Source: Candidatus Sericytochromatia bacterium
GTDB taxonomy: Bacteria; Cyanobacteriota; Sericytochromatia; UBA7694; JACMQJ01
Length of the DNA: 64,000 nt
Direction: 5' to 3'
Assembly: GCA_046328015.1 (NCBI GenBank)
Contig: JAXLXH010000001.1
Coordinates: forward strand, 2,546,350-2,610,349
Of this stretch, positions 3-61,116 are shown piece by piece. The stretch's first letter is position 1, and each line of letters begins with the position of its first letter. Both the position numbers and the translations under genes were made by a program. The notes under the pieces are model-generated. The model searched no databases. It had not been told where the DNA came from and saw nothing but the letters and a program-made list of their open reading frames with translations.

Positions 3-3000
3 ATTGATGTAAATGGAATACAAAAAGATGGCTTACAAGATTGGCAAGGTACTTTAAATGGTTCTATTTCAATAGATGTAAAATCAAAATTAGAAGAAAC
101 TCTTAACAAATTAGATTTACCAAAAGGAACTAGAGTAAATGTTGTTTATGATGAAAAAGCTAAAGAGTTTGATGTTAAATTAAATTATGAAATGATAAGT
201 GAAAGATTTGGAGAACTTACTGCTTTAAGGATAAAACCAGAAGCAGATGGTAGCTTATCTATAAGATCTATGGGTAATTTAGTTAATGCCAATTTAAATT
301 TAACAGATGGTTTAGCTGTAAAAGGTAAAGTAAATGTTCCCTTTGTAGCTTCAGTAGCTGCTGATGGTTCTGTTTCTATGAAAGATATGGATAAAATTGA
401 TGCAAAAGCTGGTGCAGAAGTTGAAATAAAAACACCTTTAACTTTACCAAATATAAAAGTAGGTGCTAATGTAAATCCTAATATGCAAAGAAATACCACT
501 ACTAATAAATTTGATTTTAATCCTAATCTAACTAAAGGTAATGCTAATATCTTTCCAGATTTAAAAGTTGATGGTAAATTAATACCTCAATTTGTTGAAG
601 ATAAAACAGGTTCTTGGGAAACAGATGCTCATAAAGCTATTGCAGGATCAATTATAAGTGTTGCTGAAAGTATGGAAAAAGGTGGGTTTATTGTTCCTCA
701 AAGTATAAAAAATGTAAAAAATAATTTAAAAAATTGGGGTACAGAATCTTATAAATCTCAAGAAGTAAAAGATAAACAAGTTATTAATGATTTTGTAAAT
801 GGAAAAATAAAGTTAGAATACGATATTTCTAAACAAATGAATTTAAAAGGATTTCCTAACGCGAATATTAATCAATTTGATCCTAATATAAAATTTACTG
901 GTGATGGACAAAAATTAAATGTAGTTTTTGATAATTCTAAATTAGTTGCTAGTTCTGATGGTAAATCTACTACAGTAGCAACTCAAGAAGGGAGACCAGA
1001 TGGTTTATCTATAGATGTTTCAGCTAATTTAAATAATACTACTGCTTCTGTAGATGCTAAAGCAAGATTACAAGTAAATATTGATGATAAAGAAAGAAAA
1101 GATTTTTCTAAAAAACTTACTGATATGGGTATGAACCCAAATAAAGCTGAAATTTCTGGTGATTTAACAATTGATACCAAATTACATTCAGAACTAAATA
1201 GTACAGATTTAAGTAAAGTTAATTTGGATGCAACTGTTAATGTAAAAGCTAATGATGTTAGTGTTTTTGACCCAACTACAAATACCAAAATAAGTTTAAG
1301 AAAAGCTAAAGCTGATGGTGATTTAAAAGTAGTTCAGGAAGGTAAAAATACTGTTTTAAAAGCTGATACAAAAGTATCTTTATCAGGATTTAATGTTTAT
1401 AAAGGTAATGAAAGATTAGTAGCTGTAGGTAGTGCAGCTTTTTCTGGAAAGTTATCTTATGAGCATGTACAATCTGAAGATAAAAAATCTCAGAAAACTA
1501 AAGTTTTAGTTCAAGGACATTTAGATGTTAGTAGTGGTAAATATGATGATTTTTCTGTTAAAAATTTAAAGGCTGATGGTTTGGTAGCTTATACAGAAAA
1601 AACAGGTGTAACCTTTGGAGCTACTACAGAAGCCGCTATAAAACTTTCTGGAAATATTACTAACGAAAAAGAAGGTATAAATCTAAATATAAAGAATGTT
1701 TCAGGTTATGGAAAAATAGATGTTGATCAATCTGGTAACATTAAAAGTGCTGATATAAAAGCAGGTGCTTCTGGTAAAAATGAATTTAGAGTAGCTGGAA
1801 AAATAAAAGGTGAAGATTTTATTTTAGAATCAGACTTAAAAGCACATGGTAAAGTAAAAATAGATAAAAATGGAGAAAAAACAACTTTTTCTCTTAAAGG
1901 TGATATAGACAGGTTAAAAACAGGAAATATAGATCTTGAAGATTTTAAAAATATAAATGCTAAAGTAACTTTTGATCCTGTTACAAATTCTGTAACTTTA
2001 AAAGCTGAAACAGGTAAAAACTTAGATTTAAAAGGTAAAATTCAGGGGCAAGAATTTATTTTTAAAGGTGATGCAGAAGTAACTCTACAAGTTGATAAAG
2101 CTACAGGTAAATTTACTCTTACTCCAAATGCTAAAGTAGAACATCTAAAAGTAGGTGATTTTGATTTAAAAGATGCAGAATTAAATGGGGCTAAAATTTC
2201 TGTAGATCCATCTAATGGTAAAAATAAAGTTAGTATAGATTCTTTAGAAAATCAAAATTTGAATTTTAAAGGTGATTTTATAAGCGGTAAAAATAATACT
2301 ACTCATGTAGATATAAAAGGTAAAGGTAGTATTAATTTTGAAGCTACTCCAAATAAAACTACTGGAAAAATGGATTATTCAGTTTCTACTAAAAATGAAT
2401 TTGAAAATTTTGAAATAGGTGATTTTAAACTTAAAAATGCCGTTTTTGATGGTAAAGTAGGTTTTGATGGTCAAAATATTTCTTTAAATGGTAACACTAA
2501 TGAATACCTTAAATTTAAAGGTACTCAAATTAACAAACATACTAATAAAGAAACCAATTTAGATTTTGAAGCAAAAGGAAATTTAACTATTAAAACTGAT
2601 AAAAATGATGGCTTAAATATTTCAATGCAAAATGTAGAACTTAAAAAAGGTTTAATTGATGATTATTTAATAGAAGACACCAAAATAAATGGTAAATTAA
2701 ATTATCAAAAAGCTAAAGATGTAAAAACTCTAAATTTCTCAGGTCTAGATGAGAAAAATCCTAATTTAGAATTATCTGGTAAATTAACAAAAACTTATAA
2801 AGATTTGGAAGGAAAAGAACAAAAATATGTTTCTGAAATTTCAAACTTAGCGTTACAAGGTTCTGTTTCATTAGAAGATAATAAATTAAAATTCCATGAT
2901 TTAAAAACAGAAGTAAAAGGAAAAGTAAATGGTGTTTCTGTAAATAATATTATTGCGGCTAATACCGAAAAAGATGGTTCTTTAGATATAAAACTAGGTA

Positions 3001-4475
3001 ATAGTGTTGATGGTGTTTATTTAGGTGATACCATAAAAGTTAAAGAATTAGAAGATGGCAGATTAAGCTTAAAACCTACTACCAAAAATGGTAGTTTAAA
3101 GATAGGTAGTAGTAAAGATGATATAATATCAATGTTAGATGATTTAAATAAACTTAATTCTGTTAATGCCTCCTCTAATCTTCCTAATGATATAAAAAAT
3201 ATTAAACAACAATTAGCTACATTCTCAACGCTTAATATGAGAGCTGATTTAGATAATTTTAGTATTATTTATGATCCTAAAAATAAAAATATGGTTTTAG
3301 ATTCAGATCTAAATGGTCAAATTGGTACTAAGGTTATAGTTGATCCGAATAATAAAACAGATATCAATTTTAGAAATGTAGATATTACAGGAAAATTAAA
3401 AGCAGATACCGAATCTAATAATTTAACTATTACTAATGGTGTAATGTCAGGTACTACAGATAATATAGAAGATATGATTTTAGGTGCTTTAGCAAAATCT
3501 GGAGCTATACCAAAAGATTATGTAACAGATAAAGAAAAACATAAAATATCTTTTAATATGGGTGGAAAAACTGTTAATATAGATACTAATAAAACAGGTA
3601 TTGGAGAAGATAGTCAAATAGGATTAAAAACTGGAACTAAATTAGCGGGTATCAATTTTAATTATAAAATGAAATCTAAAGTAACAGTTGAAAATATAGC
3701 TCCTAAAGATGCTAAAGAACCTAAAAATGTTATAAAAATACATTTAGATAAAAGTAGCTTAGCAGGTTTGATGACTGTTGATCTAGATGGAAAAGGTAAA
3801 ACTTTAGGTGGTTTGATAAAAGTTAATCTAAATAAACAAATAGAAGGAAATAGAACTCCTTATTTAGATTTTATAGAAACATTAGATAATTTTGATAAAA
3901 ATACCGAAAAAGATTATAAAGAAGCTAAAACTACTTTTGAAAATAAGTTTTTAGCCGAACTTCCTAAAGATACTAGAGAAAAAGAAAAAAATAGAAAATT
4001 AGAAAAAGCTCTAAAAGAAAATAATTTAGATTCTTTTGATAATTATCAAAAACATACAGGTGCGGTGCAATTATTAGATGGAAGAACTATTATTTTTGAT
4101 TTGGAACAATATTTAAAAACTCAAACGGGTGGAAATGCAGATTTTAAAATAGAACCATCTAAAAATGTATTATCAGGTGATAAAGATGCAGATCATTTTA
4201 AATTAGGTTTTTCTGTTACGGTAAAAAATATGGGTCCAGGTAAAGTTGATATTCCTAAAGATGTAAAAGAAGCTAAAAGTGTTACTGATATTATAGAGCA
4301 AGTTCCTGAAATACTTAATCAAACACTAAATGTTACAGAACAAGTAGATAAAGTTGCTAAGGATATAAATACTAATGTTAATAATACTGTAAATACAGTT
4401 AATGCTCAAAAAAATAATGCTTTGGGTCAAATGAGAAATATTAATACTCAGCTAAAAAATAATATAAAAAGATAA
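3..4475 (+). CDS. very large repetitive Lys/Asn/Asp-rich secreted or surface protein (5' end runs off the window; >1490 aa)
   Basis: Open frame without stops from nt 3 to the TAA at 4475; upstream of the M at 192 the same repeat style continues. Beta-rich low-complexity repeats, no Cys, no RTX GGXGXD repeats and no catalytic motif recognised. Confidence 0.6.
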   Translation: MDVNGIQKDGLQDWQGTLNGSISIDVKSKLEETLNKLDLPKGTRVNVVYDEKAKEFDVKLNYEMISERFGELTALRIKPEADGSLSIRSMGNLVNANLNLTDGLAVKGKVNVPFVASVAADGSVSMKDMDKIDAKAGAEVEIKTPLTLPNIKVGANVNPNMQRNTTTNKFDFNPNLTKGNANIFPDLKVDGKLIPQFVEDKTGSWETDAHKAIAGSIISVAESMEKGGFIVPQSIKNVKNNLKNWGTESYKSQEVKDKQVINDFVNGKIKLEYDISKQMNLKGFPNANINQFDPNIKFTGDGQKLNVVFDNSKLVASSDGKSTTVATQEGRPDGLSIDVSANLNNTTASVDAKARLQVNIDDKERKDFSKKLTDMGMNPNKAEISGDLTIDTKLHSELNSTDLSKVNLDATVNVKANDVSVFDPTTNTKISLRKAKADGDLKVVQEGKNTVLKADTKVSLSGFNVYKGNERLVAVGSAAFSGKLSYEHVQSEDKKSQKTKVLVQGHLDVSSGKYDDFSVKNLKADGLVAYTEKTGVTFGATTEAAIKLSGNITNEKEGINLNIKNVSGYGKIDVDQSGNIKSADIKAGASGKNEFRVAGKIKGEDFILESDLKAHGKVKIDKNGEKTTFSLKGDIDRLKTGNIDLEDFKNINAKVTFDPVTNSVTLKAETGKNLDLKGKIQGQEFIFKGDAEVTLQVDKATGKFTLTPNAKVEHLKVGDFDLKDAELNGAKISVDPSNGKNKVSIDSLENQNLNFKGDFISGKNNTTHVDIKGKGSINFEATPNKTTGKMDYSVSTKNEFENFEIGDFKLKNAVFDGKVGFDGQNISLNGNTNEYLKFKGTQINKHTNKETNLDFEAKGNLTIKTDKNDGLNISMQNVELKKGLIDDYLIEDTKINGKLNYQKAKDVKTLNFSGLDEKNPNLELSGKLTKTYKDLEGKEQKYVSEISNLALQGSVSLEDNKLKFHDLKTEVKGKVNGVSVNNIIAANTEKDGSLDIKLGNSVDGVYLGDTIKVKELEDGRLSLKPTTKNGSLKIGSSKDDIISMLDDLNKLNSVNASSNLPNDIKNIKQQLATFSTLNMRADLDNFSIIYDPKNKNMVLDSDLNGQIGTKVIVDPNNKTDINFRNVDITGKLKADTESNNLTITNGVMSGTTDNIEDMILGALAKSGAIPKDYVTDKEKHKISFNMGGKTVNIDTNKTGIGEDSQIGLKTGTKLAGINFNYKMKSKVTVENIAPKDAKEPKNVIKIHLDKSSLAGLMTVDLDGKGKTLGGLIKVNLNKQIEGNRTPYLDFIETLDNFDKNTEKDYKEAKTTFENKFLAELPKDTREKEKNRKLEKALKENNLDSFDNYQKHTGAVQLLDGRTIIFDLEQYLKTQTGGNADFKIEPSKNVLSGDKDADHFKLGFSVTVKNMGPGKVDIPKDVKEAKSVTDIIEQVPEILNQTLNVTEQVDKVAKDINTNVNNTVNTVNAQKNNALGQMRNINTQLKNNIKR

Positions 4476-35737: not shown

Positions 35738-36809
<1,072 letters not shown>

Positions 36810-37280
36810 ATTAACCTCAAATTTTTTATGTTTCAAATTTATCTAAAAAATCATTTAACCATAAATCAGCTTCTTCTAATGAATTAAAGTATTCAGATTC
36901 CAAGATTCTTTATCAGATATAGAAGAAAAAATTTAACATAAAAAACTTTTTTTCCGCTATTTCCAAAACTAAAAGCTTTATCACCAACTTTAGCTTCTAA
37001 TATTTCTGTTTTATAAATGTAATCTAAATTATATCTAGTAGTTTCATCTATTCTTAAAAATTTTGCCATAATAAAAACCATAAAAAACATTTTATATCTA
37101 CATTCTAGAATTTTATCATAGTATAGTTTTTAATTATTTTTTTTGGAAAAAATGTTTATAATTTTTTAGTACGATATATCATATTTTAAGTAATAATATG
37201 TTTCTTAAAGAAACCTTAACCTAAAAGGATTATTATAATTTTTACTGGTATAATATATATTTGAAGGGAGGTGATTTAAA

Positions 37281-37355
37281 ATGGGATGGACAACCATAAT
37301 ACAAATGTTTACTGGAATGTCTAGTTTAGTCTCAGTAGAAAAAGAGGAAAATTAA
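37281..37355 (+). CDS. 24-aa small peptide ORF (MGWTTIIQMFTGMSSLVSVEKEEN) behind a perfect Shine-Dalgarno; Fst-like type I toxin candidate
   Basis: 'GGGAGGTGA' 9 nt upstream of the ATG. Hydrophobic core with an acidic tail. A GC hairpin lies 140 nt downstream (37496-37520). Confidence 0.3.
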   Translation: MGWTTIIQMFTGMSSLVSVEKEEN

Positions 37356-37495
37356 TAAACTAGAAAAATTTCATTACAACGGCGTAATGATTCAAAAAAA
37401 ATTCAAAAAATTGCAAAAACTTTTAAGACTAAAAATATAATCAAAAAAATATCAAAATGTTGTATAATTAAATAAGAATTACTTTTTTAGAGAAG

Positions 37496-37520
37496 AAACT
37501 TGTTTCCGCGCTGGAAACTT
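37496..37520. repeat. GC-rich hairpin 'aaacttgtttccgcgctggaaactt' (family E)
   Basis: Isolated GC palindrome in the AT desert. Paralogous to 40488..40510. Confidence 0.6.
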
Positions 37521-39666
37521 AAAACTATATTTATTTGCTAAAAATTAAAAAAATCTACTTAATATTTCTATTATTAATCCAAAAAAAATGATAATATTTA
37601 TAGGAAATAAAGGAAATGAAAAAAATATAATAATAAAAATATCAAACTTATTATAAAAAATTTTATTGAAAATATATTGAATTGTAAAAAAAGAGAGAAC
37701 ATATATAAAGTAAAAAATAATGAAAAAAATATAGTTTCATCTAACATATTAAAAAAACTATATTTTTTAATAAAAAAAGTATTAATATCTATTATTTCTT
37801 CTTTTTCTTATAGAAAAAAATAATTTATTATGTACAATAATAAAAATATAAAAAAATAATAGAATAAATTTATTACTGTTAAACTAAAAGAAAATTTAAA
37901 CAGTTTATCTAAATTTTCTTTTGCTTCAAAAACATTTATTAATAATTCTCTTTTTACTTTATTTATTAAAATAATTATATAAGTTGATATAAAAGGAGAT
38001 AATATTAATCCATAAAAAAGTGTTTCTAAGCTTCTATCTCTAATATTTTTAACCTGATTTCTATTATTTTTTAATTATAACAAAATTTTTTTATAAAATC
38101 TGAAAAGATTTTTCAATGAAAAAACTTTAGTGATCATTATAACTAAAATTAAAAAATAGGTTTTTATTAGTGAATATATTAGTTTAAATAAAAATGTATT
38201 GATAAAGATATTTTTATTCTGAAACTTAATTTAAATTAATTAGTATGCTAATTAAATATGTATAGTTTAAAATTTATAATCCTTATAATAAAAGTTACTT
38301 TTGTTTTTTAAGGAAAATTTATTTTAAAATAATAAGGAAAGTTTTTTTATTTAATATATAGAGTCTTAGAATATAAATAAACTAGAAATATAAGATATAA
38401 AAGTTTGTCTAAAATTTTTTTTACAAAAAAAATTTTAGACAAATAAAGTATTTTTATAAAGTGAGAACGCCTTTCTTTGTAGTTTTTTTGAGAGACAATA
38501 ATGTAAATAAAAAAATGTTGATAATTATAAAACTAATTAGAATAACTATGATTATAGTTTTATTTAATTTTTCAGGATTAAATTATAAAATGTTTTTTAT
38601 AGAGGAAAAATATATAAAGTAAAATTTTCACGAAGAAAAACTTTTGTTTATTTTATAATAAAAATACTAGGTATAAGTTTTTTTGGAATAAAATGAATTT
38701 TTTTATATACAAAAAAATAAATTATCAATAATAGCTATAAGTTTATATAATCAATGTATTAAACTTTCCATTATTGATAATTCATATTATCAATAATAGA
38801 AATATCGTTCAAATATATAATTATAACAGCCTTTTATTTTAGTTTTCTCAAGAAAAATTTTTTATTTTTAAAACAAAATCTATTTGATAAAATAAAATTA
38901 AACAAAAGAAAAATAGTGATTTAAATAACAATATAATTTATTTTTGATTTTTAAAATACTTTTTTCTTATTTAATAAGAATATATTCAGAAATTAAATTA
39001 CTTTCTTATAATTAATTTAAATTAATTAGTAAACTAACTATATTAGGTTTTCATGATTAACTTTTACCTAAAAAAGAGTTATAATAAAATTATTCTAATT
39101 TAAATAATAAAATTGAGTGGAAATTTACCTAAAAAAATAATTTAAATAATATAGAATTAAATGGAAATATTTTCATATTTAATTCTATTGATATAGATTT
39201 ACTAATATATTTTTTGCCTATTAGTAAAAATATTGATTTTTTTCTTCAAGGAAAAAACTAATTCCTAATCAATATGATTTTAAAAGCTTTAAAATATAAA
39301 GGTAAAAATAAATACAAATTTACTCTAAAAATATAAAAATAATACTTATGTTTTTGATATTCATGATGAAAAGAAAAATTTTATTTATAATATAAATGTA
39401 TTTATTAATGATAAATTAGAACTTTCTGAAAAATAAATTATAAAAATAATAATAATCTATCTATAAATTTTGCAGTAAGTTTTTTCAAAAAACAATATTA
39501 ATTTTTTTAGGTATATTAATTTACCTTTTTATTCAAAAATAATAAATGATTTTATAATAATAATATATATACTTATTTTTTATATGATACTCTCACCTTT
39601 TTATATTTTATATAAAGAGCATATTTTAGTAAAAAAAGAATTAGATTTTATTTTAATAAAAATATT

Positions 39667-40368
39667 ATGAATATAAAAAAAATTAAATGTGAAATTAAAA
39701 ATATAACAAAAAATTTTTCAAAAGGAAAAATATTAGATTTATGTACAGGAAATGGAGATTTTATAGATTTTATAAAAGATGAATTAAAAAACTTTTCTGA
39801 AATTATTGGAGTAGATATTCATAATAGAAATATTGAAAAAGAAAATTTTATTTATAGAAAAATGGATATTTATAATTTAAATTTTCCTCAAAATTACTTT
39901 GATATAATAACCATATCAAATTCTTTGCATCATATAGAAAATTTAGAAATAATATTTTCTTCAGTAAAAAAATATTTAAAAGAAGATGGTTTTTTTATAA
40001 TAAATGAGATGTTTTCTGACAACCAAAGTTCTCCACAGCAAACTCATGTTCTATTACATCATTTTTCAGCAGAAATAAATAAATTAGAAAATATTTATCA
40101 TAGAGAAACCTATAAAAAAGATGAAATTAAAAATATTATAAAAACAAATAATTTTATTATTGAAAACAAATTTGAATTTTATTTTAAAGAAAGTATCGCA
40201 GGAAATCAAATTTCAGAACTTATAGATAATTTATTAAAAAAAGTTCCGCAAGAAAAAAAAGAAGAGTTTACAACTAAATCAAAATATATAATAGAAAATT
40301 ATTTATTTTATGGTTTTCAAAATGCAACTCAATTATTATTAATAACAAAACCTAATAAAAGTATTTAA
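39667..40368 (+). CDS. class I SAM-dependent methyltransferase
   Basis: Motif I 'ILDLCTGNGDF', post-I 'IIGVDI', 'ISNSLHH'. Substrate unknown. Confidence 0.65.
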   Translation: MNIKKIKCEIKNITKNFSKGKILDLCTGNGDFIDFIKDELKNFSEIIGVDIHNRNIEKENFIYRKMDIYNLNFPQNYFDIITISNSLHHIENLEIIFSSVKKYLKEDGFFIINEMFSDNQSSPQQTHVLLHHFSAEINKLENIYHRETYKKDEIKNIIKTNNFIIENKFEFYFKESIAGNQISELIDNLLKKVPQEKKEEFTTKSKYIIENYLFYGFQNATQLLLITKPNKSI

Positions 40369-49821: not shown

Positions 49822-49856
49822 AAAAAAAAGATGCTTATACAGCATCTTTTTTTTAA
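49822..49856. terminator. bidirectional rho-independent terminator between convergent genes
   Basis: 'aaaaaaaaagatgcttatacagcatctttttttt' is a hairpin aagatgct/agcatctt flanked by A9 and T8. Confidence 0.75.
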
Positions 49857-50182
49857 ATATTTATTTCTCCCAAAACTTCTAACTTATAGTTAGGAGGAAC
49901 TTCCATATAAGATATAACTTGAATTCTTGGATATTTTCTTTCTATTAATCTTCTAAAATATAATCTTATATCTGGTTTACAAATAATAGGAACACCTTTT
50001 AAACCAACAGATAATAATATTTCTTCTTTTTCATCTATACTTTTATATAAATTTACGCTTTCAACTCCACTTATCTCTATTCTAGTTCCATTATCATCTC
50101 TAATAATTTTATTTCTTAATAAATCTTCTAAACTTTGAGAAAGAGTTAAAACTTTTAGTGGAATTCTATTATCTTCAGACAT
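49853..50182 (-). CDS. hypothetical protein (109 aa)
   Basis: ORF with a coding-like composition. Ends at the terminator. No family recognised. Confidence 0.45.
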   Translation of the reverse strand: MSEDNRIPLKVLTLSQSLEDLLRNKIIRDDNGTRIEISGVESVNLYKSIDEKEEILLSVGLKGVPIICKPDIRLYFRRLIERKYPRIQVISYMEVPPNYKLEVLGEINI

Positions 50183-54483: not shown

Positions 54484-55650
54484 ATGTTAAAATATCAAAT
54501 AACACAAAATGGAAATAAAATAGACTATGTTCTATTAGTAATGGTTTTAGCTCTTGTTGTTGTAGGTATTTTTGCTGTTTTTAGTTCTAGTGCTTATGTA
54601 GCTCAATTTAAATATAATAACAGTGCCTATTTTTTAATAAGACAAGTTATTTACACAATCGTTGGTTTAATAGGAATGTTTGTTGCGATGAAATTGGATT
54701 TTTATCATCTAAGAAAATATTCCAAAGTTATGATTATAGGTAATGCTTTTTTATTAATGTGTACCTATTTTTCTTTTTTAGGTGGAACTGTAGTTAATGG
54801 AGCTAATGGTTGGATAATAATACCTGTTATAAATCAAGGATTTCAACCATCTGAAATAGCAAAAATTGTAGCCTTAATATATGTAGCTAATATACTAGCT
54901 TACCCTAATTATAAAAATTTAGATATATTTACTAGAATTCTAACTACAATACCTATTGCTGGATTATTAGGAATAGTGGTTTTTCAACCAGATATGGGAA
55001 ATACCTCTATTATTACTATGGCTGTGTTATCAGTTTATTTTTCTGCTGGATTAAGTAAAAAATTAATTTTATCTGTAATGAGCTTTGTAGGCGTTTTAGT
55101 TACAGCCATAATTGCTTCAAACCCTTATCAATTAGATAGAGTTTTATTTTTTTTAAATCCTTGGCAAGACCCACAAGGAAAAGGATTTCAACTAATACAA
55201 TCTTTATTAGCAGTTGGTTCTGGTGGTATTACAGGTAGAGGTTTGGGACAAAGTATTCAAAAATTATTTTATTTGCCTGAAAGTCATAACGATTTCATTT
55301 TTGCTGTTTTTGCAGAAGAAACTGGTCTTATAGGAACTTTAACTATGATATTTTTCTTCTTTGTAGTACTAACAAGAGGACTTAATATAGCTGTAAAAAA
55401 TAAAGATAGTTTTATAAAATTGTTATGTACTGGTATAACTATACTAATCACAGGTCAAACATTTATGAACATAGGGGTTGTAACTGGTATTTTGCCAACA
55501 ACAGGAATAACGCTACCTTTTATAAGTTCAGGAGGAACATCTATGATTGTAAATTTATTTTGTATAGGTTTATTATTAAACGCCTCTAGTTATACTTATA
55601 CAGATTGGGAAGTTATAGAAGGTAATTCTAATAATAATGAAAATTTTTAA
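54484..55650 (+). CDS. SEDS-family peptidoglycan glycosyltransferase (FtsW/RodA)
   Basis: 10-TM pattern and conserved 'GQSIQKLFYLPESHNDFIFAV...LPFISSGG' SEDS motifs. Confidence 0.85.
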   Translation: MLKYQITQNGNKIDYVLLVMVLALVVVGIFAVFSSSAYVAQFKYNNSAYFLIRQVIYTIVGLIGMFVAMKLDFYHLRKYSKVMIIGNAFLLMCTYFSFLGGTVVNGANGWIIIPVINQGFQPSEIAKIVALIYVANILAYPNYKNLDIFTRILTTIPIAGLLGIVVFQPDMGNTSIITMAVLSVYFSAGLSKKLILSVMSFVGVLVTAIIASNPYQLDRVLFFLNPWQDPQGKGFQLIQSLLAVGSGGITGRGLGQSIQKLFYLPESHNDFIFAVFAEETGLIGTLTMIFFFFVVLTRGLNIAVKNKDSFIKLLCTGITILITGQTFMNIGVVTGILPTTGITLPFISSGGTSMIVNLFCIGLLLNASSYTYTDWEVIEGNSNNNENF

Positions 55651-55742: not shown

Positions 55743-56759
55743 ATGTCTGGGATAGATATTATAGGGAAAACAAATTCTTTACATGACGCAAGAGAATTAG
55801 CTAGAAAAAACTCAGGAAATGAAGCCATAATAAAAAATAATGATGGATCATATAGTGTACAAAAACTAACAATAAAAGAAACTAATAATATTGAAAGTAA
55901 AGCAGATGCAAATTTTGGGCCTTCAGTTGTAGAATTTTCTTTAGAAAAAAATGGGAAAGAAGAAATAATAATAAACCCTAACACAACATTTATTAATAAA
56001 TTAGAAAGCAAAACTGTTAATGCTCAAGAAGTTGGAATAGGAATAGCAAAATATTTAACAGATAAAGGCGAAAAGACCTTAAAAAAAGGAAACGAAGTTG
56101 TTCAATATATAGAAAATAAAGGAGATGAAATAGTTAAAGAAGTAAAAAAAGATTTAAAAGAAGCTATTAATAAATTTGAAAATTTTATAACACCTTTATC
56201 AGGCGATATAAAAAATTTCTTTTCACAAAAATCACCTGTTTTAAGAAGTTGGGAATCTAATTGTGGTCCAACTTGTGGAGCTAATATAGCTGAAATGTTT
56301 ATACCAGGAATATCAAAAGGAAATCCTAATTTTATTTTAAAAATTAGAGATATTGATGGACCTAAAGAACATGCTTTAACTGAACAAGAAATTATAAATG
56401 GAGTCAAAATAGCAACTAATGGAAAAGTTAAAGGAAAAGTTATTGATACAAATTATAAAAGTAATGAAAAAAATAATTTAATAAATGATATTAAAAAAGA
56501 ACTAAGTAAAGGTAATTTACTTATGCTATGTACAGGTTTTGGTAAACCAACTGAAAAGAAACCTGTCCCATCTAGACATTATATAGCAATAGTTGGTATA
56601 GATAAAAATGGTAATTTATTAGTATCTGACCCTTATAAAAAATCCCCTGGTTCTGATTTAGATGTTTGGACTCCTGAACAGTTACAAGACAGGATGAATA
56701 GAGCTACAAAAACTTCAAGTGGTGTAAGTAGCCTAACCTCTTTTGAAAAAGTAAAATAA
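55743..56759 (+). CDS. protein with C-terminal papain-fold cysteine peptidase domain (Peptidase_C39_2-like)
   Basis: 'WESNCGPTCGANIAEM' (Cys), 'RHYIAIVGID' (His), 'LVSDPY' (Asp). No signal peptide. Confidence 0.5.
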   Translation: MSGIDIIGKTNSLHDARELARKNSGNEAIIKNNDGSYSVQKLTIKETNNIESKADANFGPSVVEFSLEKNGKEEIIINPNTTFINKLESKTVNAQEVGIGIAKYLTDKGEKTLKKGNEVVQYIENKGDEIVKEVKKDLKEAINKFENFITPLSGDIKNFFSQKSPVLRSWESNCGPTCGANIAEMFIPGISKGNPNFILKIRDIDGPKEHALTEQEIINGVKIATNGKVKGKVIDTNYKSNEKNNLINDIKKELSKGNLLMLCTGFGKPTEKKPVPSRHYIAIVGIDKNGNLLVSDPYKKSPGSDLDVWTPEQLQDRMNRATKTSSGVSSLTSFEKVK

Positions 56760-56832
56760 ATTTGAAATTATTTAGTTTTTATTATAAAATATAAACTTAT
56801 AAAACTTTATAAATTTAATGTAAAGGAGAGTC

Positions 56833-57888
56833 ATGAAAAAACAAAACATTTTTTCTTTATTAATTTGCTCAGTTATAGTATTAAGTACTAGTATTGTAGA
56901 TTCTAAAGAAATAACTATAAATTCTAAATCTATAAAAAAAATTCAAGATAAATCTCTAAAAGAAAATGCTGAAAAGGCTTTTAAAAATAAAGAATTTAAT
57001 GATGCTGTAAAATACTATAGAGATTTGGTAAAAAAAGATAATTCTAATGAAGAATATATATATAAGTTAGCTATATCTCTATATGAAGTAGAAAATTATA
57101 AAGATTCAGAAACCTATTTTAATTATTTAAATGAATCTTCTAGTAATAGTAAATATTTATCAGATGCTAAAAATTATTTAGCTATAATAAAATCTGGAAA
57201 TTTTCCTAAAAAAAATAATAAAAAAAGTTTAATAAGTGTTCAAAGTAATTCAAGCGAAGATAATTTTGTAGAATTATCTGATAATGATAATCATTATTTG
57301 TGTAATCCTGATATAAATCAAAGAACTATTTTAAAAGAAGGAAATTTTGTAAGATGGGATGAAAGTGATTTCCCTTTAAAAATATATATTCCTAAAGTAC
57401 CAGAAAAATATCAAGGTGATTCTAAAGTTAATTATGCTGAAGTAGCAAAATCTAGTATGAGACAATGGGCTAACAGAGCTCCTAATATTGTAAAATTATC
57501 CTTTGTAAGTAGTGCCTCTTCAGCTAATGTAGTCGTCGAGTGGTTAGAATATTTTAAAGATGAAGCTTGGGGTAAAGCACATTTACCAGAATTTGATCCA
57601 TCAAAAGGAAAAAGATTTTCTAGAATATTATTAGCTACCAAAGCAAAACCAGGTAGTGCTTTATTTTCTAGTGACGCAACAAACTTTGGGGATGATGAAT
57701 TTAATAAATTGGTTGTTCATGAGTTTGGACATACATTAGGTTTAGTTCATAGCTATAAATCTGATGATAATTTAGATATTATGGCACCTGTATTTAGTTT
57801 ATTTAAAAGAGATATATCTGATAGAGATTTAGCCTCATTAAAAAAATTATATTCTTTACCTAAAGATAGTAAAGTTATCTGTAAATAG
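56833..57888 (+). CDS. secreted TPR + matrixin-like (M10) zinc metalloprotease
   Basis: Signal peptide. 'HEFGHTLGLVHS' HExxHxxGxxH zincin motif followed by a Met-turn region 'DIMAP'. Confidence 0.7.
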   Translation: MKKQNIFSLLICSVIVLSTSIVDSKEITINSKSIKKIQDKSLKENAEKAFKNKEFNDAVKYYRDLVKKDNSNEEYIYKLAISLYEVENYKDSETYFNYLNESSSNSKYLSDAKNYLAIIKSGNFPKKNNKKSLISVQSNSSEDNFVELSDNDNHYLCNPDINQRTILKEGNFVRWDESDFPLKIYIPKVPEKYQGDSKVNYAEVAKSSMRQWANRAPNIVKLSFVSSASSANVVVEWLEYFKDEAWGKAHLPEFDPSKGKRFSRILLATKAKPGSALFSSDATNFGDDEFNKLVVHEFGHTLGLVHSYKSDDNLDIMAPVFSLFKRDISDRDLASLKKLYSLPKDSKVICK

Positions 57889-58232: not shown

Positions 58233-59726
58233 ATGGAAGAAAAAAAAGTTTTTTTTATAGGAAGCAATGATTTAAAATTAAAAATATCTGATTATTTTGA
58301 AAAAATTAGTTTTGATAAAAAATTACTTTTTTTAGACTTTAATAATGAATTTAAGAACTCCTATGGTTTATCAACAAAGCTGGAGGCAGCTGAGGTATTC
58401 TCTAATAAGAATAAAATTAAGCTAAAAAAAGAACAAGAATCTAATTTTGAAGAATTAAATACAAAAAATAATCAAATAGCTATCATAGAATTAAATGATA
58501 ATGAAAAATTATTTGAATATATTAATCATATAAAAAATAATTTTTTTATTTTTATTATTAAGACATATAATAATAATTTTATTAGTAATCTTGCAAGCAT
58601 AGATAAAAAATTATTTATTTTTTTAGATAAAGAAGAAAAATATTTTGAGTTTCTGATAGTAAATATAACAAATTATTTAAATTTAATTGATGAACTAAGC
58701 ACAACAAAAAAAGCTTTAGAAGAAAAAAGAAAAAAATATATTTCTCTATTAGAGAACAATCCTATAGGTATTTTATTAGCAGATATAAAAGGTAATATTC
58801 TAGAAGTTAATGAATGTATGATAAAAATGTTAGGTTCACCTTCTAAAGAAGCTACAAAAAAATTAAATTTACTTACTTTACAAAAATTAGTTGAAGTAGG
58901 ATTTTCTGATGACTTACTAAATTGTATTAAGTTTAAAACAGCTATTACAAATGAATATCCTTATAAAACAGTTTGGGGCAAAGATGTTGTAATTAAATAT
59001 ATTATGAACCCATTAACAGATGAAAGTAATCAAGTAGTAGGAATTTATTGCTTATTTGAAGATATAACAGAAAAGAAAAAAATAGAAGAAGCCATAATAG
59101 AATCTTTACATGAAAAAGAAACCTTATTAAAAGAAATTCATCATAGAGTAAAAAATAATCTTCAGATAATTTCAAGCCTAATAAATTTACAGGCTAATAA
59201 AATAAAAGATAAAAGAATTACAGATATTTTTAGAGAAAGTCAAAATAGAATTAAAGCTATGTCAATTGTACATGAAGAACTTTATCAAAATAAAAAACTT
59301 ATCTCTATAAACTTAGAATCTTATATAAAAAACTTAACTTATTCTTTATATAAGTCTTATCGTTTAGACAATATAGATGTTAAATTTGATGTTTCAGTAA
59401 ATGATATTAATATAGATATTGAAAATATTATCCCAATTGCTTTAATATTAAATGAAACTATATCTAACTCATTAAAATATGCTTTTATAAATAAAAATAA
59501 AGAAGATAATAAAATAACTATAAATTTTTATTCGCAAAATTTAGATTTTATTATTATAATTAAAGATAATGGAATTGGTTTACCATCTAATATTGAAGAA
59601 CTAAAAACTAAATCTTTAGGATTATCTCTTATAGAAAGTCTAACTTCTCAAATAGGTGGAAGTTTAGAAATAGATTGTAATAATGGAACTTGTTACAAAA
59701 TAACATTTCCTATAAATCAAGAGTGA
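58233..59726 (+). CDS. cytoplasmic sensor histidine kinase, HisKA_2 type (degenerate receiver-like N-domain, PAS, HisKA_2, HATPase)
   Basis: 'EIHHRVKNNLQIISSLINLQ' HisKA_2 H-box. PAS region 'NPIGILLADIKGNILEVNE'. C-terminal HATPase 'IIIKDNGIGLP'. Confidence 0.75.
   Translation: MEEKKVFFIGSNDLKLKISDYFEKISFDKKLLFLDFNNEFKNSYGLSTKLEAAEVFSNKNKIKLKKEQESNFEELNTKNNQIAIIELNDNEKLFEYINHIKNNFFIFIIKTYNNNFISNLASIDKKLFIFLDKEEKYFEFLIVNITNYLNLIDELSTTKKALEEKRKKYISLLENNPIGILLADIKGNILEVNECMIKMLGSPSKEATKKLNLLTLQKLVEVGFSDDLLNCIKFKTAITNEYPYKTVWGKDVVIKYIMNPLTDESNQVVGIYCLFEDITEKKKIEEAIIESLHEKETLLKEIHHRVKNNLQIISSLINLQANKIKDKRITDIFRESQNRIKAMSIVHEELYQNKKLISINLESYIKNLTYSLYKSYRLDNIDVKFDVSVNDINIDIENIIPIALILNETISNSLKYAFINKNKEDNKITINFYSQNLDFIIIIKDNGIGLPSNIEELKTKSLGLSLIESLTSQIGGSLEIDCNNGTCYKITFPINQE
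58377..58419. repeat. repeat fragment 'aaagctggaggcagctgaggtattctctaataagaataaaatt' embedded in-frame in the kinase CDS
   Basis: 23 nt are identical to 63556-63578 and the upstream part resembles the family-A 'gcagctttgg' region. Encodes KLEAAEVFSNKNKI. Confidence 0.55.
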
Positions 59727-59733
59727 GGATAGT

Positions 59734-61116
59734 ATGATTAAAGAACATCCAAAAGTCCTTATAGTTGAAGATCAAAATATTGTTGCATTAGATCTAGAAA
59801 ATTCTTTAAGATCTTTAAAATATAATGTTACAGGTATAGCTTTTTCTGGAGCTGGAGCTATAAAAAAAACTCAAGAGACTTTACCAGATATAATTTTAAT
59901 GGATATTACCTTAAAAGGAGATATGGATGGTATTAATGCTGCACAAGAAATAAAAAAAAGATTTGATATACCTATAATATACTTAACTGCTTACACTGAT
60001 TCTGCTACTATTGAAAGAGCAAAAAAAACAGAACCATTAGGTTATTTAATAAAACCATTTGAAGAAAAAGAGTTAAATAGAGTAATAGAACTAGCTTTAT
60101 ATAAGCACAAAATAGATAAAAAAACTAAAGAGAAAGAAGTTATTAGCAAAAGCATCTTAAATTCTTTAGATTCTGCTATTATTAGATTAAATAAAGATTT
60201 AAATATTATTTTTGCTAATAAAAAATTTTTAGAAATTTCTGAATATACTGAAAAAGAACTATATAATAAAAGTTTAAAAGAACTTTTTATATCTCTAAAT
60301 TTAGATGGTGCTTATAATGATAAAGAAGTTATTTTAATAACTAGATCTGGTGATAATAAATTACTATCATTAAAAATTAATTATGATAATGATGATAATG
60401 ACTTAATGATAGGAATAAATATTATATTAGATGAACTAAAAGAAAATAATACATTGTTCAGCTTAAAATATATAGAAAAAAGCATAAACTTACTTTTAGA
60501 TATATGCAACAATCATGCAGATGGTATTTTTAATACTTTAACTGGATTAAAATTTAATTTTAGTGTAATAGAAAAAAATAATAATAATGAACTAATAATT
60601 AATAATATTAATTTTATGAAAGAATATGGTATTAAATTAGAAAAAAATATTAGTAATCTTTTTGAATTTTCTCAAAAAACTTTTATTATAAAAGAAACTG
60701 TACCTTTATTAAATATTTTAGAAAAAGTTTTAAAAAAAATTAAATATGATAATTTTGAGATAGATATTTCTAATAAAGATATTGTGTATTGTGATATAGA
60801 AAGTATTTCAGAAGCAATATATCAAATAATTCTAAATGCTTTAGAAGCATCAGAATATGACTCAAAAATAAGTTTATTTACAAACAAAATTATTATTAAT
60901 AATCAAAGTTTTTTAAAATTTTCTATAAAAGACGAAGGTATAGGAATAGAAGAAAAAAACTTGAATAAAATATTTGAGCCATACTTTTCAACTAAATGTA
61001 AAAAAGGAATTGGTTTAACAAAAGCTATGATAAATATAAGTAAAAATGATGGATTTATAACTTTTGAACAAAACTATCCTTCTGGAGTTATTTTTAACAT
61101 ATTTATTCCAATATAA
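59734..61116 (+). CDS. response-regulator receiver fused to PAS-like and HATPase-like C-terminal domains (hybrid)
   Basis: REC with 'ILMDITLKGDMDG' phospho-acceptor Asp and 'YLTAY...LIKP'. C-terminal 'IKDEGIGIEEKNLNKIFEPYFSTK..GIGL' G1/G2-like boxes. Confidence 0.65.
   Translation: MIKEHPKVLIVEDQNIVALDLENSLRSLKYNVTGIAFSGAGAIKKTQETLPDIILMDITLKGDMDGINAAQEIKKRFDIPIIYLTAYTDSATIERAKKTEPLGYLIKPFEEKELNRVIELALYKHKIDKKTKEKEVISKSILNSLDSAIIRLNKDLNIIFANKKFLEISEYTEKELYNKSLKELFISLNLDGAYNDKEVILITRSGDNKLLSLKINYDNDDNDLMIGINIILDELKENNTLFSLKYIEKSINLLLDICNNHADGIFNTLTGLKFNFSVIEKNNNNELIINNINFMKEYGIKLEKNISNLFEFSQKTFIIKETVPLLNILEKVLKKIKYDNFEIDISNKDIVYCDIESISEAIYQIILNALEASEYDSKISLFTNKIIINNQSFLKFSIKDEGIGIEEKNLNKIFEPYFSTKCKKGIGLTKAMINISKNDGFITFEQNYPSGVIFNIFIPI

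Follow-up and report, generated by a model that had tools for sequence, protein, structure and literature searches.

The DNA analysed here, referred to below as the window, is a stretch of 64 kb (64,000 nucleotides) of a 3.55-Mb contig from a Candidatus Sericytochromatia metagenome-assembled genome with a G+C content of ~25%. The window carries two adjacent open reading frames (ORFs), A and B, on the plus strand. ORF A (positions 55743 to 56759; MFN8672604.1) encodes a leaderless, modular, papain-like protein of 338 amino acids with a Peptidase_C39_2 domain, and ORF B (56833 to 57888; MFN8672605.1) encodes an exported protein of 351 amino acids in which a tetratricopeptide repeat (TPR) module is combined with a matrixin-like zinc metalloprotease domain. 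The two are consecutive proteins in the NCBI record under the names 'C39 family peptidase' and 'matrixin family metalloprotease', respectively, and thus are already correctly named at the family level. An earlier, sequence-only reading had placed both ORFs at these positions, had picked out the strings CGPTC, HYIAIVG, SDPY and HEFGHTLGLVH, all of which are present, and had taken the two products to be a secreted effector or protease pair. Based on the data reported here, the domain calls of that reading stand, while the functional pair does not. Instead, we suggest that A and B are independent neighbouring genes, that A is a cell-wall-directed peptidase, and that B is a Sec-exported, probably disulfide-stapled TPR zinc protease. 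To this interpretation as a whole we assign a probability of roughly 0.55.

Protein A matches the Pfam family Peptidase_C39_2 (PF13529) over residues 171-298 with an E-value of 3.6e-8 and 34.5 bits compared to a gathering score of 24, and the alignment covers positions 13-143 of the 143 positions in the profile. The CGPTC motif corresponds to C174-C178, HYIAIVG begins at H279 and SDPY includes D296. Among 5.8 billion proteins, the families of A and B each comprise six to seven clusters at 90% identity. The A family, with 7 clusters, has identities of 44-59%, and Q162 (56226-56228), C174 (56262-56264), H279 (56577-56579) and D296 (56628-56630, all on the plus strand) are invariant in the alignment of its seven sequences. 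Because homologues of A and B in other metagenomes (35-62% identity) have invariant catalytic residues, we regard both as real, conserved genes and not as chance motif matches. The absence of a signal peptide from A, noted earlier from the sequence, is supported by a start codon that is the first possible one after the upstream stop codon and by a maximal 12-residue Kyte-Doolittle mean of only 0.27 within the first 45 residues.

An AlphaFold2 (AF2) model of A built from the seven-member alignment has a mean predicted local distance difference test score (pLDDT) of 74 and consists of three parts. The N-terminal module (residues 5-80; 55755 to 55982, plus strand) is modelled as strand-helix-strand-strand-helix-strand-strand with a pLDDT of ~85. 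It is followed by a Lys/Glu-rich helical linker (residues 83-147; 55989 to 56183, plus strand), the length of which varies between homologues through indels, which has a pLDDT <50 at residues 98-147, and which gives a sub-threshold phasin-related match (E 0.0012). The third part is the papain-like catalytic domain (residues 150-338; 56190 to 56756, plus strand), for which Pfam, conservation, the AF2 model and Foldseek all argue. In the model, C174 starts a helix (174-186), H279 lies just before a strand (280-286), D296 lies just after a strand (292-295), and Q162 is located upstream. The positions of C174, H279 and D296 relative to the helix and the strands thus conform to the arrangement in papain. 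In agreement with the fold proposed previously, Foldseek comparison to the PDB returned papain-like enzymes at a probability of 1.0. The top match is Alr0975 of Nostoc (E 1.8e-5), and further matches include the deubiquitinase ZUFSP, UfSP, Lpg2622 of Legionella, a papain-like toxin, CdiA-CT toxins and staphopain. As far as the model goes, these PDB matches settle the fold and not the function. Among the predicted viral structures in BFVD, the top matches of the model comprise two cyanophage proteins (a 'lysozyme', E 4e-6, and an endolysin), the lysin domain of a tape-measure protein and a wall hydrolase of the phi29 type. A phage origin of A was considered and rejected, as no relative is present in the IMG/VR viral contigs and no meaningful PHROG hit was obtained; among the relatives of A, only the NlpC/P60 part of P0017 resembles tail lysins. 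Membership of A in a defence system was likewise rejected, with no PADLOC hits of note.

One feature that sets A apart from other Peptidase_C39_2 proteins is its N-terminal module. When 1.84 billion representatives were searched exhaustively with a profile, 74 relatives of A were identified at E <= 1e-3, and ~20 of these match only the N-terminal part of A and carry other C-termini. According to a hidden Markov model (HMM) of the module, it is located at the extreme N-terminus in 1-3 copies per protein, and with the profile of full-length A, two long proteins show as many as four matching stretches. The core motif of the module is sLxxAxxxAxKxxGxEAIvKxxDGsYSV...VVEFS. By Pfam, the module is combined with NlpC/P60 in seven proteins, with an NAGPA phosphodiester glycosidase domain in P0059 and, by a weak match, with CHAP in P0063, and several proteins combine it with long helical or low-complexity regions (700-1000 amino acids). 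DUF2188 (PF09954) is the sole recurrent Pfam similarity of the module: it is detected in 7 of 29 copies at or below threshold (best E 2.3e-4), and the match spans only the helix-hairpin part of the motif (AxxxAxKxxGxEAIvKxxDGsYSV). The module of A itself scores 13.3 bits (E 0.097) and does not reach the gathering score of 22, while the best DUF2188 score in full-length scans, that of P0050, is 22.1 bits compared to the cut-off of 22. In the literature, DUF2188 has no known function and only an unproven link to defence operons. Most relatives that share the catalytic domain of A are ~350 amino acids long and have a different N-terminus with an EF-hand-like 'DG[KR]I..E...L' pattern. The source names of the module and of the A family are Ca. 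Sericytochromatia and Ca. Obscuribacterales only.

The recombination of these parts is also evident within a single genome. The contig that includes the window encodes at least A, P0025 and P0063 together with three further C39_2 paralogues (P0015, P0019 and P0027), the N-termini of which are unlike the module of A. Outside the window, P0025 (module plus papain-like domain) directly adjoins P0063 (module plus CHAP-like domain); this tandem corresponds to MFN8670778.1 and MFN8670779.1 (locus L094, positions 1-1076), and the next gene, of at least 1598 codons, runs off the contig end. By contrast, when the window was searched by tblastn with P0015, P0019, P0063 and the N-terminal and catalytic parts of A, A alone was found. 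Thus, with a module that is shared with other hydrolases and with shuffled paralogues in the same genome, A is one product of lineage-specific domain shuffling. P0079 (782 amino acids) and P0081 (996 amino acids) are long, leaderless proteins that carry two to three modules by HMM (four stretches with the full-length profile) ahead of Ser/Asn-rich and helical regions. Pfam matches are absent from both, and by eye they share the C-terminal segment ...KFREII..LD.....K...........KFS..LKENRDRW.KLD. For P0022, a lysozyme-like C-terminus was considered and dropped for want of PDB or PHROG support.

The extreme N-termini of the relatives of A are biased in composition. Residue 2 is Cys in 10 of 77 relatives (binomial p ~1e-9 for a background Cys frequency of 0.83% in the window proteins), and it is Ser, Thr or Cys in 41 of 77 compared to 10 of 47 other window proteins (Fisher p = 3.5e-4). 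The first 12 residues contain on average 0.49 acidic and 0.74 basic residues compared to 1.02 and 1.70, respectively, in the other window proteins, and Ser, Thr, Asn and Gln together make up 34% of the first 25 residues compared to 24%. This bias spans different N-terminal domain types. Because the samples are not independent and an AT-rich genome by itself biases composition, we leave it unexplained.

Two of the module-bearing hydrolases adjoin genes for SEDS proteins, namely A in the window and P0024 at locus L095. The gene upstream of A is ftsW (54484 to 55650, plus strand), which encodes a SEDS peptidoglycan polymerase and ends 92 nt before A. Its assignment is based on TIGR02614 (357 bits compared to a cut-off of 337.5). 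The relation between ftsW and A is one of same-strand context only, and a functional link is not shown. P0024, which has two modules and an NlpC/P60 domain, is divergently oriented relative to a gene for a SEDS protein of the FtsW/RodA family with 426 amino acids (L095, 8494-11047), and this paralogue is only 31% identical to the FtsW of the window. By a rough, post-hoc reckoning, the double SEDS adjacency is improbable by chance. At the same locus, SepF and a YggS-like gene are located 5-7 kb upstream of P0024.

In protein B, the Pfam family Peptidase_M10 matches residues 227-340 (E 1.6e-7; 31.7 bits compared to a gathering score of 24). The zinc motif HEFGHTLGLVH (H296-H306; 57718-57750) is followed by S307 and by M317 of the Met-turn (57781-57783). 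H296, E297, H300, G303, H306, S307, M317 and P319 are invariant in five sequences of the B family, which consists of 5 close clusters and the outgroups P0012 and L015; the distant outgroups also keep the zinc motif as well as the architecture of TPR and catalytic domain. The matrixin-like domain called from the sequence is therefore borne out by a zinc motif that is invariant among homologues. At the N-terminus, B has a Sec-type signal peptide (residues 1-24; 56833 to 56904, plus strand) with a predicted cleavage site VDS24/KE. Its hydrophobic core has a mean of 3.08, four homologues reach 2.2-2.4 with a conserved ...S/[KQS]E junction, and S24 and E26 are invariant in the family; a lipobox is unlikely because C12 is not conserved. 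The TPR module (residues 34-121; 56932 to 57195, plus strand) is modelled as five helices with pLDDT values of 77-94. While single-sequence Pfam TPR matches are below threshold, the B family profile matches consensus (designed) TPR proteins at residues 47-115 with E-values of 4e-13 to 3e-8. Both the signal peptide and the TPR assignment of the earlier reading are thus confirmed.

The remainder of B consists of a pre-catalytic segment (residues 143-169; 57259 to 57339, plus strand) with a conserved YLCN motif that includes C157 (57301-57303) and the matrixin-like catalytic domain (residues 170-351; 57340 to 57885, plus strand), which is defined by R174-W175 and the M10 match and ends with C350 (57880-57882) as its penultimate residue. 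The AF2 model (mean pLDDT 73) consists of the TPR module, a disordered linker and the catalytic domain from residue ~170. The top Foldseek matches in the PDB are karilysin (4in9/2xs4) and the human matrix metalloproteinases (MMPs) MMP-1, -3, -8, -12 and -13, with E-values of 7e-7 to 5e-5 and target-normalised TM-scores of 0.55-0.70, and the family profile is similar to MMPs across the zinc helix, the Met-turn and the C-terminal helix. Since the sole invariant His residues in the family are the three catalytic ones, the structural-zinc site is missing in B, and the S-loop region aligns poorly with MMP-1. In the mechanism that we propose, B would be exported by Sec, H296, H300 and H306 would hold the zinc with E297 as the general base and M317 in the Met-turn beneath, and the TPR module would most plausibly bind a protein partner or a substrate within the envelope. 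Most likely, B acts as a Sec-exported zinc endopeptidase in the envelope or the extracellular space. Matrixins had been described as uncommon in bacteria, which overstates the case: 'matrixin family metalloprotease' is a standard NCBI name, the pattern HEFGH[TA]LG has at least 600 metagenome matches with at least 79 confirmed relatives, and MMPs have been reported across bacteria (PMC6949598).

The invariant residues Y155, L156, C157 and N158 of B, present in all five family sequences and 18 residues upstream of the RW with which the catalytic domain starts, invite two explanations. Six proteins have Cys at the position of C157, and all six have the C-terminal Cys that corresponds to C350 in B. 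In the three proteins with Asp and the four proteins with Ala at this position, the C-terminal Cys is absent in all cases (3/3 and 4/4, respectively). Because the two Cys residues co-vary, we favor that B is probably stapled by a C157-C350 disulfide over a cysteine switch. In the second explanation, B would be a latent zymogen of the MMP type, with the TPR region as a pro-domain and C157 blocking the zinc as long as the pro-region is in place. A BLASTP alignment with pro-MMP-1 (E 6e-10) begins at C157 of B and at the switch Cys of pro-MMP-1, such that LCNPD of B is placed on RCGVPD of the PRCGVPD switch. The MMP-1 sequence used is consistent with the stretch in 1su3_A, which phmmer aligns from residue 159 of B. 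Moreover, the spacing to the RW/PRW motif is similar (18 and 17 residues), YLCN is invariant, and some relatives have Asp in place of C157; besides Cys, Asp is the other known switch residue, and both kinds of switch are documented in metzincins (PMC6949598). By contrast, a switch does not account for the Ala in four relatives, the pairing of Cys with the C-terminal Cys in 6 of 6 proteins better fits a disulfide, the family profile does not extend over the pro-domain region of pro-MMPs, and the 74-residue segment alone has no significant PDB match. We therefore consider a zymogen unlikely, although it deserves to be taken seriously.

A and B are encoded together with an M20 peptidase and ftsW in one orientation, with intergenic gaps of 79, 92 and 73 nt, and Shine-Dalgarno-like sequences precede the ATGs of both A (AGGAAG) and B (AAGGAGA). 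A scan for promoters and terminators detected no terminator-like site between these four genes. For promoters, the scan is uninformative in this AT-rich DNA, with 31 promoter-like sites compared to 28 +/- 6 in shuffled sequences. Given the shared orientation, the short gaps and the absence of a terminator-like site, co-transcription of the M20 peptidase gene, ftsW, A and B is possible in this organism. However, this gene order is not a conserved arrangement. Synteny was searched from both sides by three look-ups of A homologues (L001-L002; L003; L004-L006) and four of B homologues (L007-L009; L010; L011; L012), two further loci (L013 and L014) came from scanning one genome per species, and A and B were compared to all loci by tblastn. 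No B homologue was found in the A-homologue loci L001-L006, L013 and L014, and no A homologue was found in the B-homologue loci L007-L012. In sample SRR22388076, homologues of A and B are located on separate contigs (L003 and L012). An all-versus-all BLASTP comparison of the ORFs within 6 kb identified no neighbours common to the contexts of A or B, except for the close pair L011/L012. At loci with informative flanks, the neighbours of the A homologues are an amino-acid permease at L003, a ComEC-like gene together with an ATP synthase operon at L004, and genes for a phospholipase D and an ECF sigma factor at L014; the B homologues are flanked by an aldehyde dehydrogenase, a metallophosphatase or genes without known function. 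At L001 (1413-7900), proteins of 1785, 81 and 278 amino acids, none with a Pfam hit, are encoded upstream of P0002, which is the closest A homologue. Farther upstream, two transposase genes form a pair and a Phage_lysozyme gene is present, and the contig stops right after the A homologue.

Accordingly, a conserved A-B synteny was rejected, as it is absent when sought from both families, and so was a conserved immunity, holin or transporter neighbour of A or B, none being present among the ORFs within 6 kb. A and B are two independent genes that are neighbours by local accident. The proposal of a functional pair, in which A and B would be co-expressed and secreted and one would aid the other on a common extracellular target, could draw on the same strand, the 73-nt gap without a terminator-like site, the fact that both are proteases, and the similarly narrow distribution of ~6-7 clusters each. 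These features are outweighed by the lack of adjacency at all other informative loci of either family and of any neighbours in common, and by the different predicted compartments of a leaderless A and a Sec-exported B. The sequence-only reading had named a search for nearby secretion-system genes as a check, and none was found among the annotated ORFs of the window except for an isolated fragment of an FHIPEP gene. Overall, we regard a functional pair as very improbable.

For A, we propose a role as a modular cell-wall hydrolase. In this model, the N-terminal module would target or bind the protein, the flexible helical linker would give reach, and the papain-fold domain would cleave, with C174 as the likely nucleophile, H279 as the general base, D296 orienting the His and Q162 in the oxyanion hole. 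The substrate would be a peptide or isopeptide bond in the cell envelope, i.e. a peptidoglycan stem peptide or cross-link. NlpC/P60, CHAP and NAGPA are typical domains of cell-envelope hydrolases. A wall substrate is favored because NlpC/P60, CHAP-like and NAGPA domains are partners of the module, and because the catalytic domain of A resembles phage wall lysins, for which Peptidase_C39_2 has been listed as an enzymatically active domain (PMC8223927). The two SEDS adjacencies are in line with such a substrate. Several observations weigh against our interpretation. A and all of its 74 relatives lack a signal peptide, and a periplasmic wall target would require export by other means, while a cytoplasmic substrate is equally compatible with a leaderless protein; thus, the A family either acts in the cytoplasm, possibly on stem-peptide or gamma-glutamyl substrates, of which the match to Alr0975 could be a hint, or leaves the cell by an undescribed route. 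The best PDB match of A is a primitive phytochelatin synthase that cleaves glutathione and not a wall enzyme, and the structural matches of A are weak, with TM-scores of ~0.5 and identities of 10-17%. The A orthologues at L003, L004 and L014 have no consistent adjacency to SEDS or wall genes, and wall activity is a prediction for A as for every family member. With respect to B and to the independence of the two genes, the sequence alignment of C157 with the MMP switch Cys would keep a cysteine-switch zymogen a live alternative, and A and B might be co-transcribed in this organism.

Three other explanations for A have to be weighed against a wall hydrolase. A could be one of a set of leaderless, shuffled effectors that are exported independently of Sec and act against competitors, prey or a eukaryotic host, in which case the delivery signal would be the N-terminal module or the polar extreme N-terminus. 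Such a role would fit a conserved N-terminal module with variable hydrolase 'warheads' in several paralogues per genome, the leaderless state of every relative, the biased extreme N-termini (Cys2 or Ser/Thr/Cys2, few charges, rich in Ser, Thr, Asn and Gln) and structural neighbours that include the papain-like CdiA-CT toxins, a protease of a toxin/immunity pair and the Legionella effector Lpg2622. By contrast, no immunity-like or other conserved neighbour was found among the ORFs within 6 kb, no secretion-system, Rhs, VgrG, PAAR or LXG-type genes are present in the window ORFs or the other annotated loci, and the A family resembles vertically inherited single-copy orthologues (44-59% identity) in scattered housekeeping contexts. 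Moreover, an AT-rich genome by itself favors N-termini rich in Asn, Ser, Ile and Lys, and the N-terminal statistics are not based on independent samples. Of the features that characterize polymorphic toxins, no cognate immunity neighbour, no secretion linkage and no known trafficking domain was found for A. We consider this role rather unlikely. Extending it to the whole superfamily of ~74 clusters at 50% identity, we speculate that these proteins form an unrecognised effector-like repertoire, built from a DUF2188-like module or an EF-hand-like part at the N-terminus and C39_2, NlpC/P60, CHAP-like, NAGPA or long helical parts at the C-terminus. The polar, low-charge N-terminus, in which position 2 is Cys, Ser or Thr, would then be a shared signal for non-Sec export or acylation. 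Wall-degrading enzymes would in this way reach either the septal or elongation machinery of the producing cell itself or other cells that are its prey or competitors. This idea is speculative and, in our estimation, improbable.

A second explanation is that A is a cytoplasmic amidase that acts on a small gamma-glutamyl or stem-peptide substrate in murein-peptide recycling, precursor trimming or glutathione-like thiol turnover. A is leaderless, its top PDB match Alr0975 forms an acyl-enzyme with glutathione, and a class-IV aminotransferase, an M20 peptidase and ftsW are encoded nearby. NlpC/P60 and CHAP also include cytoplasmic gamma-glutamyl amidases, e.g. YkfC of B. subtilis and glutathionylspermidine amidase, in support of such a role. 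However, the match to Alr0975 is weak (TM-score ~0.5, 15% identity) and A has no match to Pfam Phytochelatin, the NAGPA partner and the tandem modules on long helical proteins better fit the binding or targeting of a polymer, and the viral structures matched by A are lysins. On balance, a cytoplasmic amidase is an outside possibility. Finally, A could be a classical C39 peptidase that cleaves double-glycine leaders off bacteriocins or other peptides destined for export, similar to the toxin-processing peptidase that the sequence-only reading had in mind. The NCBI name, the Peptidase_C39_2 match and weak matches to Peptidase_C39 (PF03412) in two paralogues of A are in line with this. A itself, however, has no PF03412 match among its Pfam hits at E <= 1, it is not fused to an ABC transporter, no transporter or precursor gene is a neighbour in any of five contexts (window, L001, L003, L004 and L014), and C39 transporter peptidase domains are absent from the top 50 Foldseek PDB matches. 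With neither a PF03412 match nor an ABC exporter or precursor gene nearby, and with domain partners and viral matches that point to wall hydrolysis, bacteriocin processing by A is extremely unlikely; A would rather work as a modular cell-wall hydrolase.

As a putative modular cell-wall hydrolase, A resembles known systems in part. Peptidase_C39_2 proteins include the enzymatic domains of some phage endolysins, and A has in common with this family an above-threshold HMM match, the papain-like Gln/Cys/His/Asp residues and viral structural neighbours that are wall lysins. It differs in that a known type of cell-wall-binding domain, a signal peptide and a phage context are all missing, and in its N-terminal module, which lacks an above-threshold Pfam match and occurs only in non-photosynthetic Cyanobacteriota. 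Modular NlpC/P60 and CHAP wall hydrolases, such as MepS of E. coli and LytE and CwlO of B. subtilis, also combine a targeting module, often repeated, with a linker and a papain-clan cysteine peptidase. The likeness extends to the module of A itself, which in relatives is fused to NlpC/P60 and CHAP-like domains, and to the two SEDS adjacencies. Hydrolases of the MepS/LytE/CwlO type have signal peptides or lipoboxes and are targeted by LysM, SH3 or coiled-coil domains. By contrast, the A family is wholly leaderless and its catalytic domain is of the C39_2 type. Alr0975, the primitive phytochelatin synthase of Nostoc (PDB 2btw/2bu3), is like A cyanobacterial with a papain-like Cys/His/Asp site, but it is only 15% identical with a TM-score of ~0.5 and lacks the N-terminal module, and A has no Pfam Phytochelatin match.

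B is similar to karilysin of Tannerella forsythia and to the vertebrate MMPs (MEROPS M10A) in the HExxHxxGxxHS motif, the Met-turn, the C-terminal helix and the RW at the domain start. MMP structures have a second, structural zinc site formed by three His and one Asp in the S-loop as well as calcium sites. Unlike the MMPs, B lacks the conserved His/Asp set for the structural zinc as well as a hemopexin or PG_binding pro-domain, and has an N-terminal TPR module and the cysteine pair C157/C350. In terms of function, B is analogous to BepA, a periplasmic M48 metalloprotease with a TPR domain, in that an exported zinc protease is joined to a TPR interaction module. No homology is claimed, because BepA is a gluzincin of M48 and B a metzincin similar to M10, and the domain order is reversed. 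The TPR region of B gives faint matches to models for BepA, BamD and PgaA. Karilysin has an Asp switch in a pro-peptide of 14 residues (PMC6949598).

Of the 51 ORFs of >=100 amino acids in the window, 26 were scanned against Pfam. These include the housekeeping genes for DnaE, a P-type ATPase, RNase II, an ACC carboxyltransferase, TyrA and CysRS, one sensor kinase, one hybrid response regulator/kinase and several ORFs without a match. The class-IV aminotransferase, which is of the D-amino-acid type, and the M20 peptidase belong to the same neighbourhood. The FHIPEP fragment is a stand-alone ORF of 109 amino acids (49853-50182, minus strand) that matches only the end of PF00771 (E 2e-11; profile positions 565-656 of 657). 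FHIPEP is the FlhA/InvA family of type III export gates. Because the fragment is flanked by the unrelated class-IV aminotransferase gene and an ORF of 114 amino acids, it is no obvious split gene. In the region 35738-39667, an ORF on the minus strand (35738-36118) corresponds to the C-terminal half only of a D-Ala-D-Ala ligase (PF07478, profile positions 91-204), and over the adjoining 3.5 kb on its upstream side there is no ORF of >=100 amino acids and the G+C content falls to 14.5-21%. Rfam families, tRNAs and tandem repeats were looked for in this region and not found; it may be a decayed gene region. A further ORF of 1427 amino acids (192-4475, plus strand) has no Pfam match at E <= 1e-4. 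Downstream of B, after an AT-rich gap of 344 nt, a PAS/HisKA_2 histidine kinase and a hybrid protein with receiver, PAS and HATPase domains are encoded on the plus strand (58233-61116), and no link of these two genes to A or B was found.

The protease pair as such is of little importance, as the adjacency of A and B is a local accident, and overall the two proteins are ordinary members of their families. The modest novelty regarding B is a stripped-down bacterial matrixin-like enzyme that lacks the structural zinc, is joined to a TPR module and has a probable disulfide staple; it will mainly be relevant to metzincin specialists. The domain family behind A is modestly interesting. Its N-terminal 80 residues represent a recurring module that is combined with at least four types of hydrolase domains, sometimes within one genome. 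Also modestly new is that this module, which has no above-threshold Pfam match and is present only in non-photosynthetic Cyanobacteriota, is shuffled among domains of the wall-hydrolase type in leaderless proteins. If the module proteins are enzymes for remodelling or attacking cell walls, they would point to an undescribed export route or to a cytoplasmic wall-peptide pathway in this lineage.

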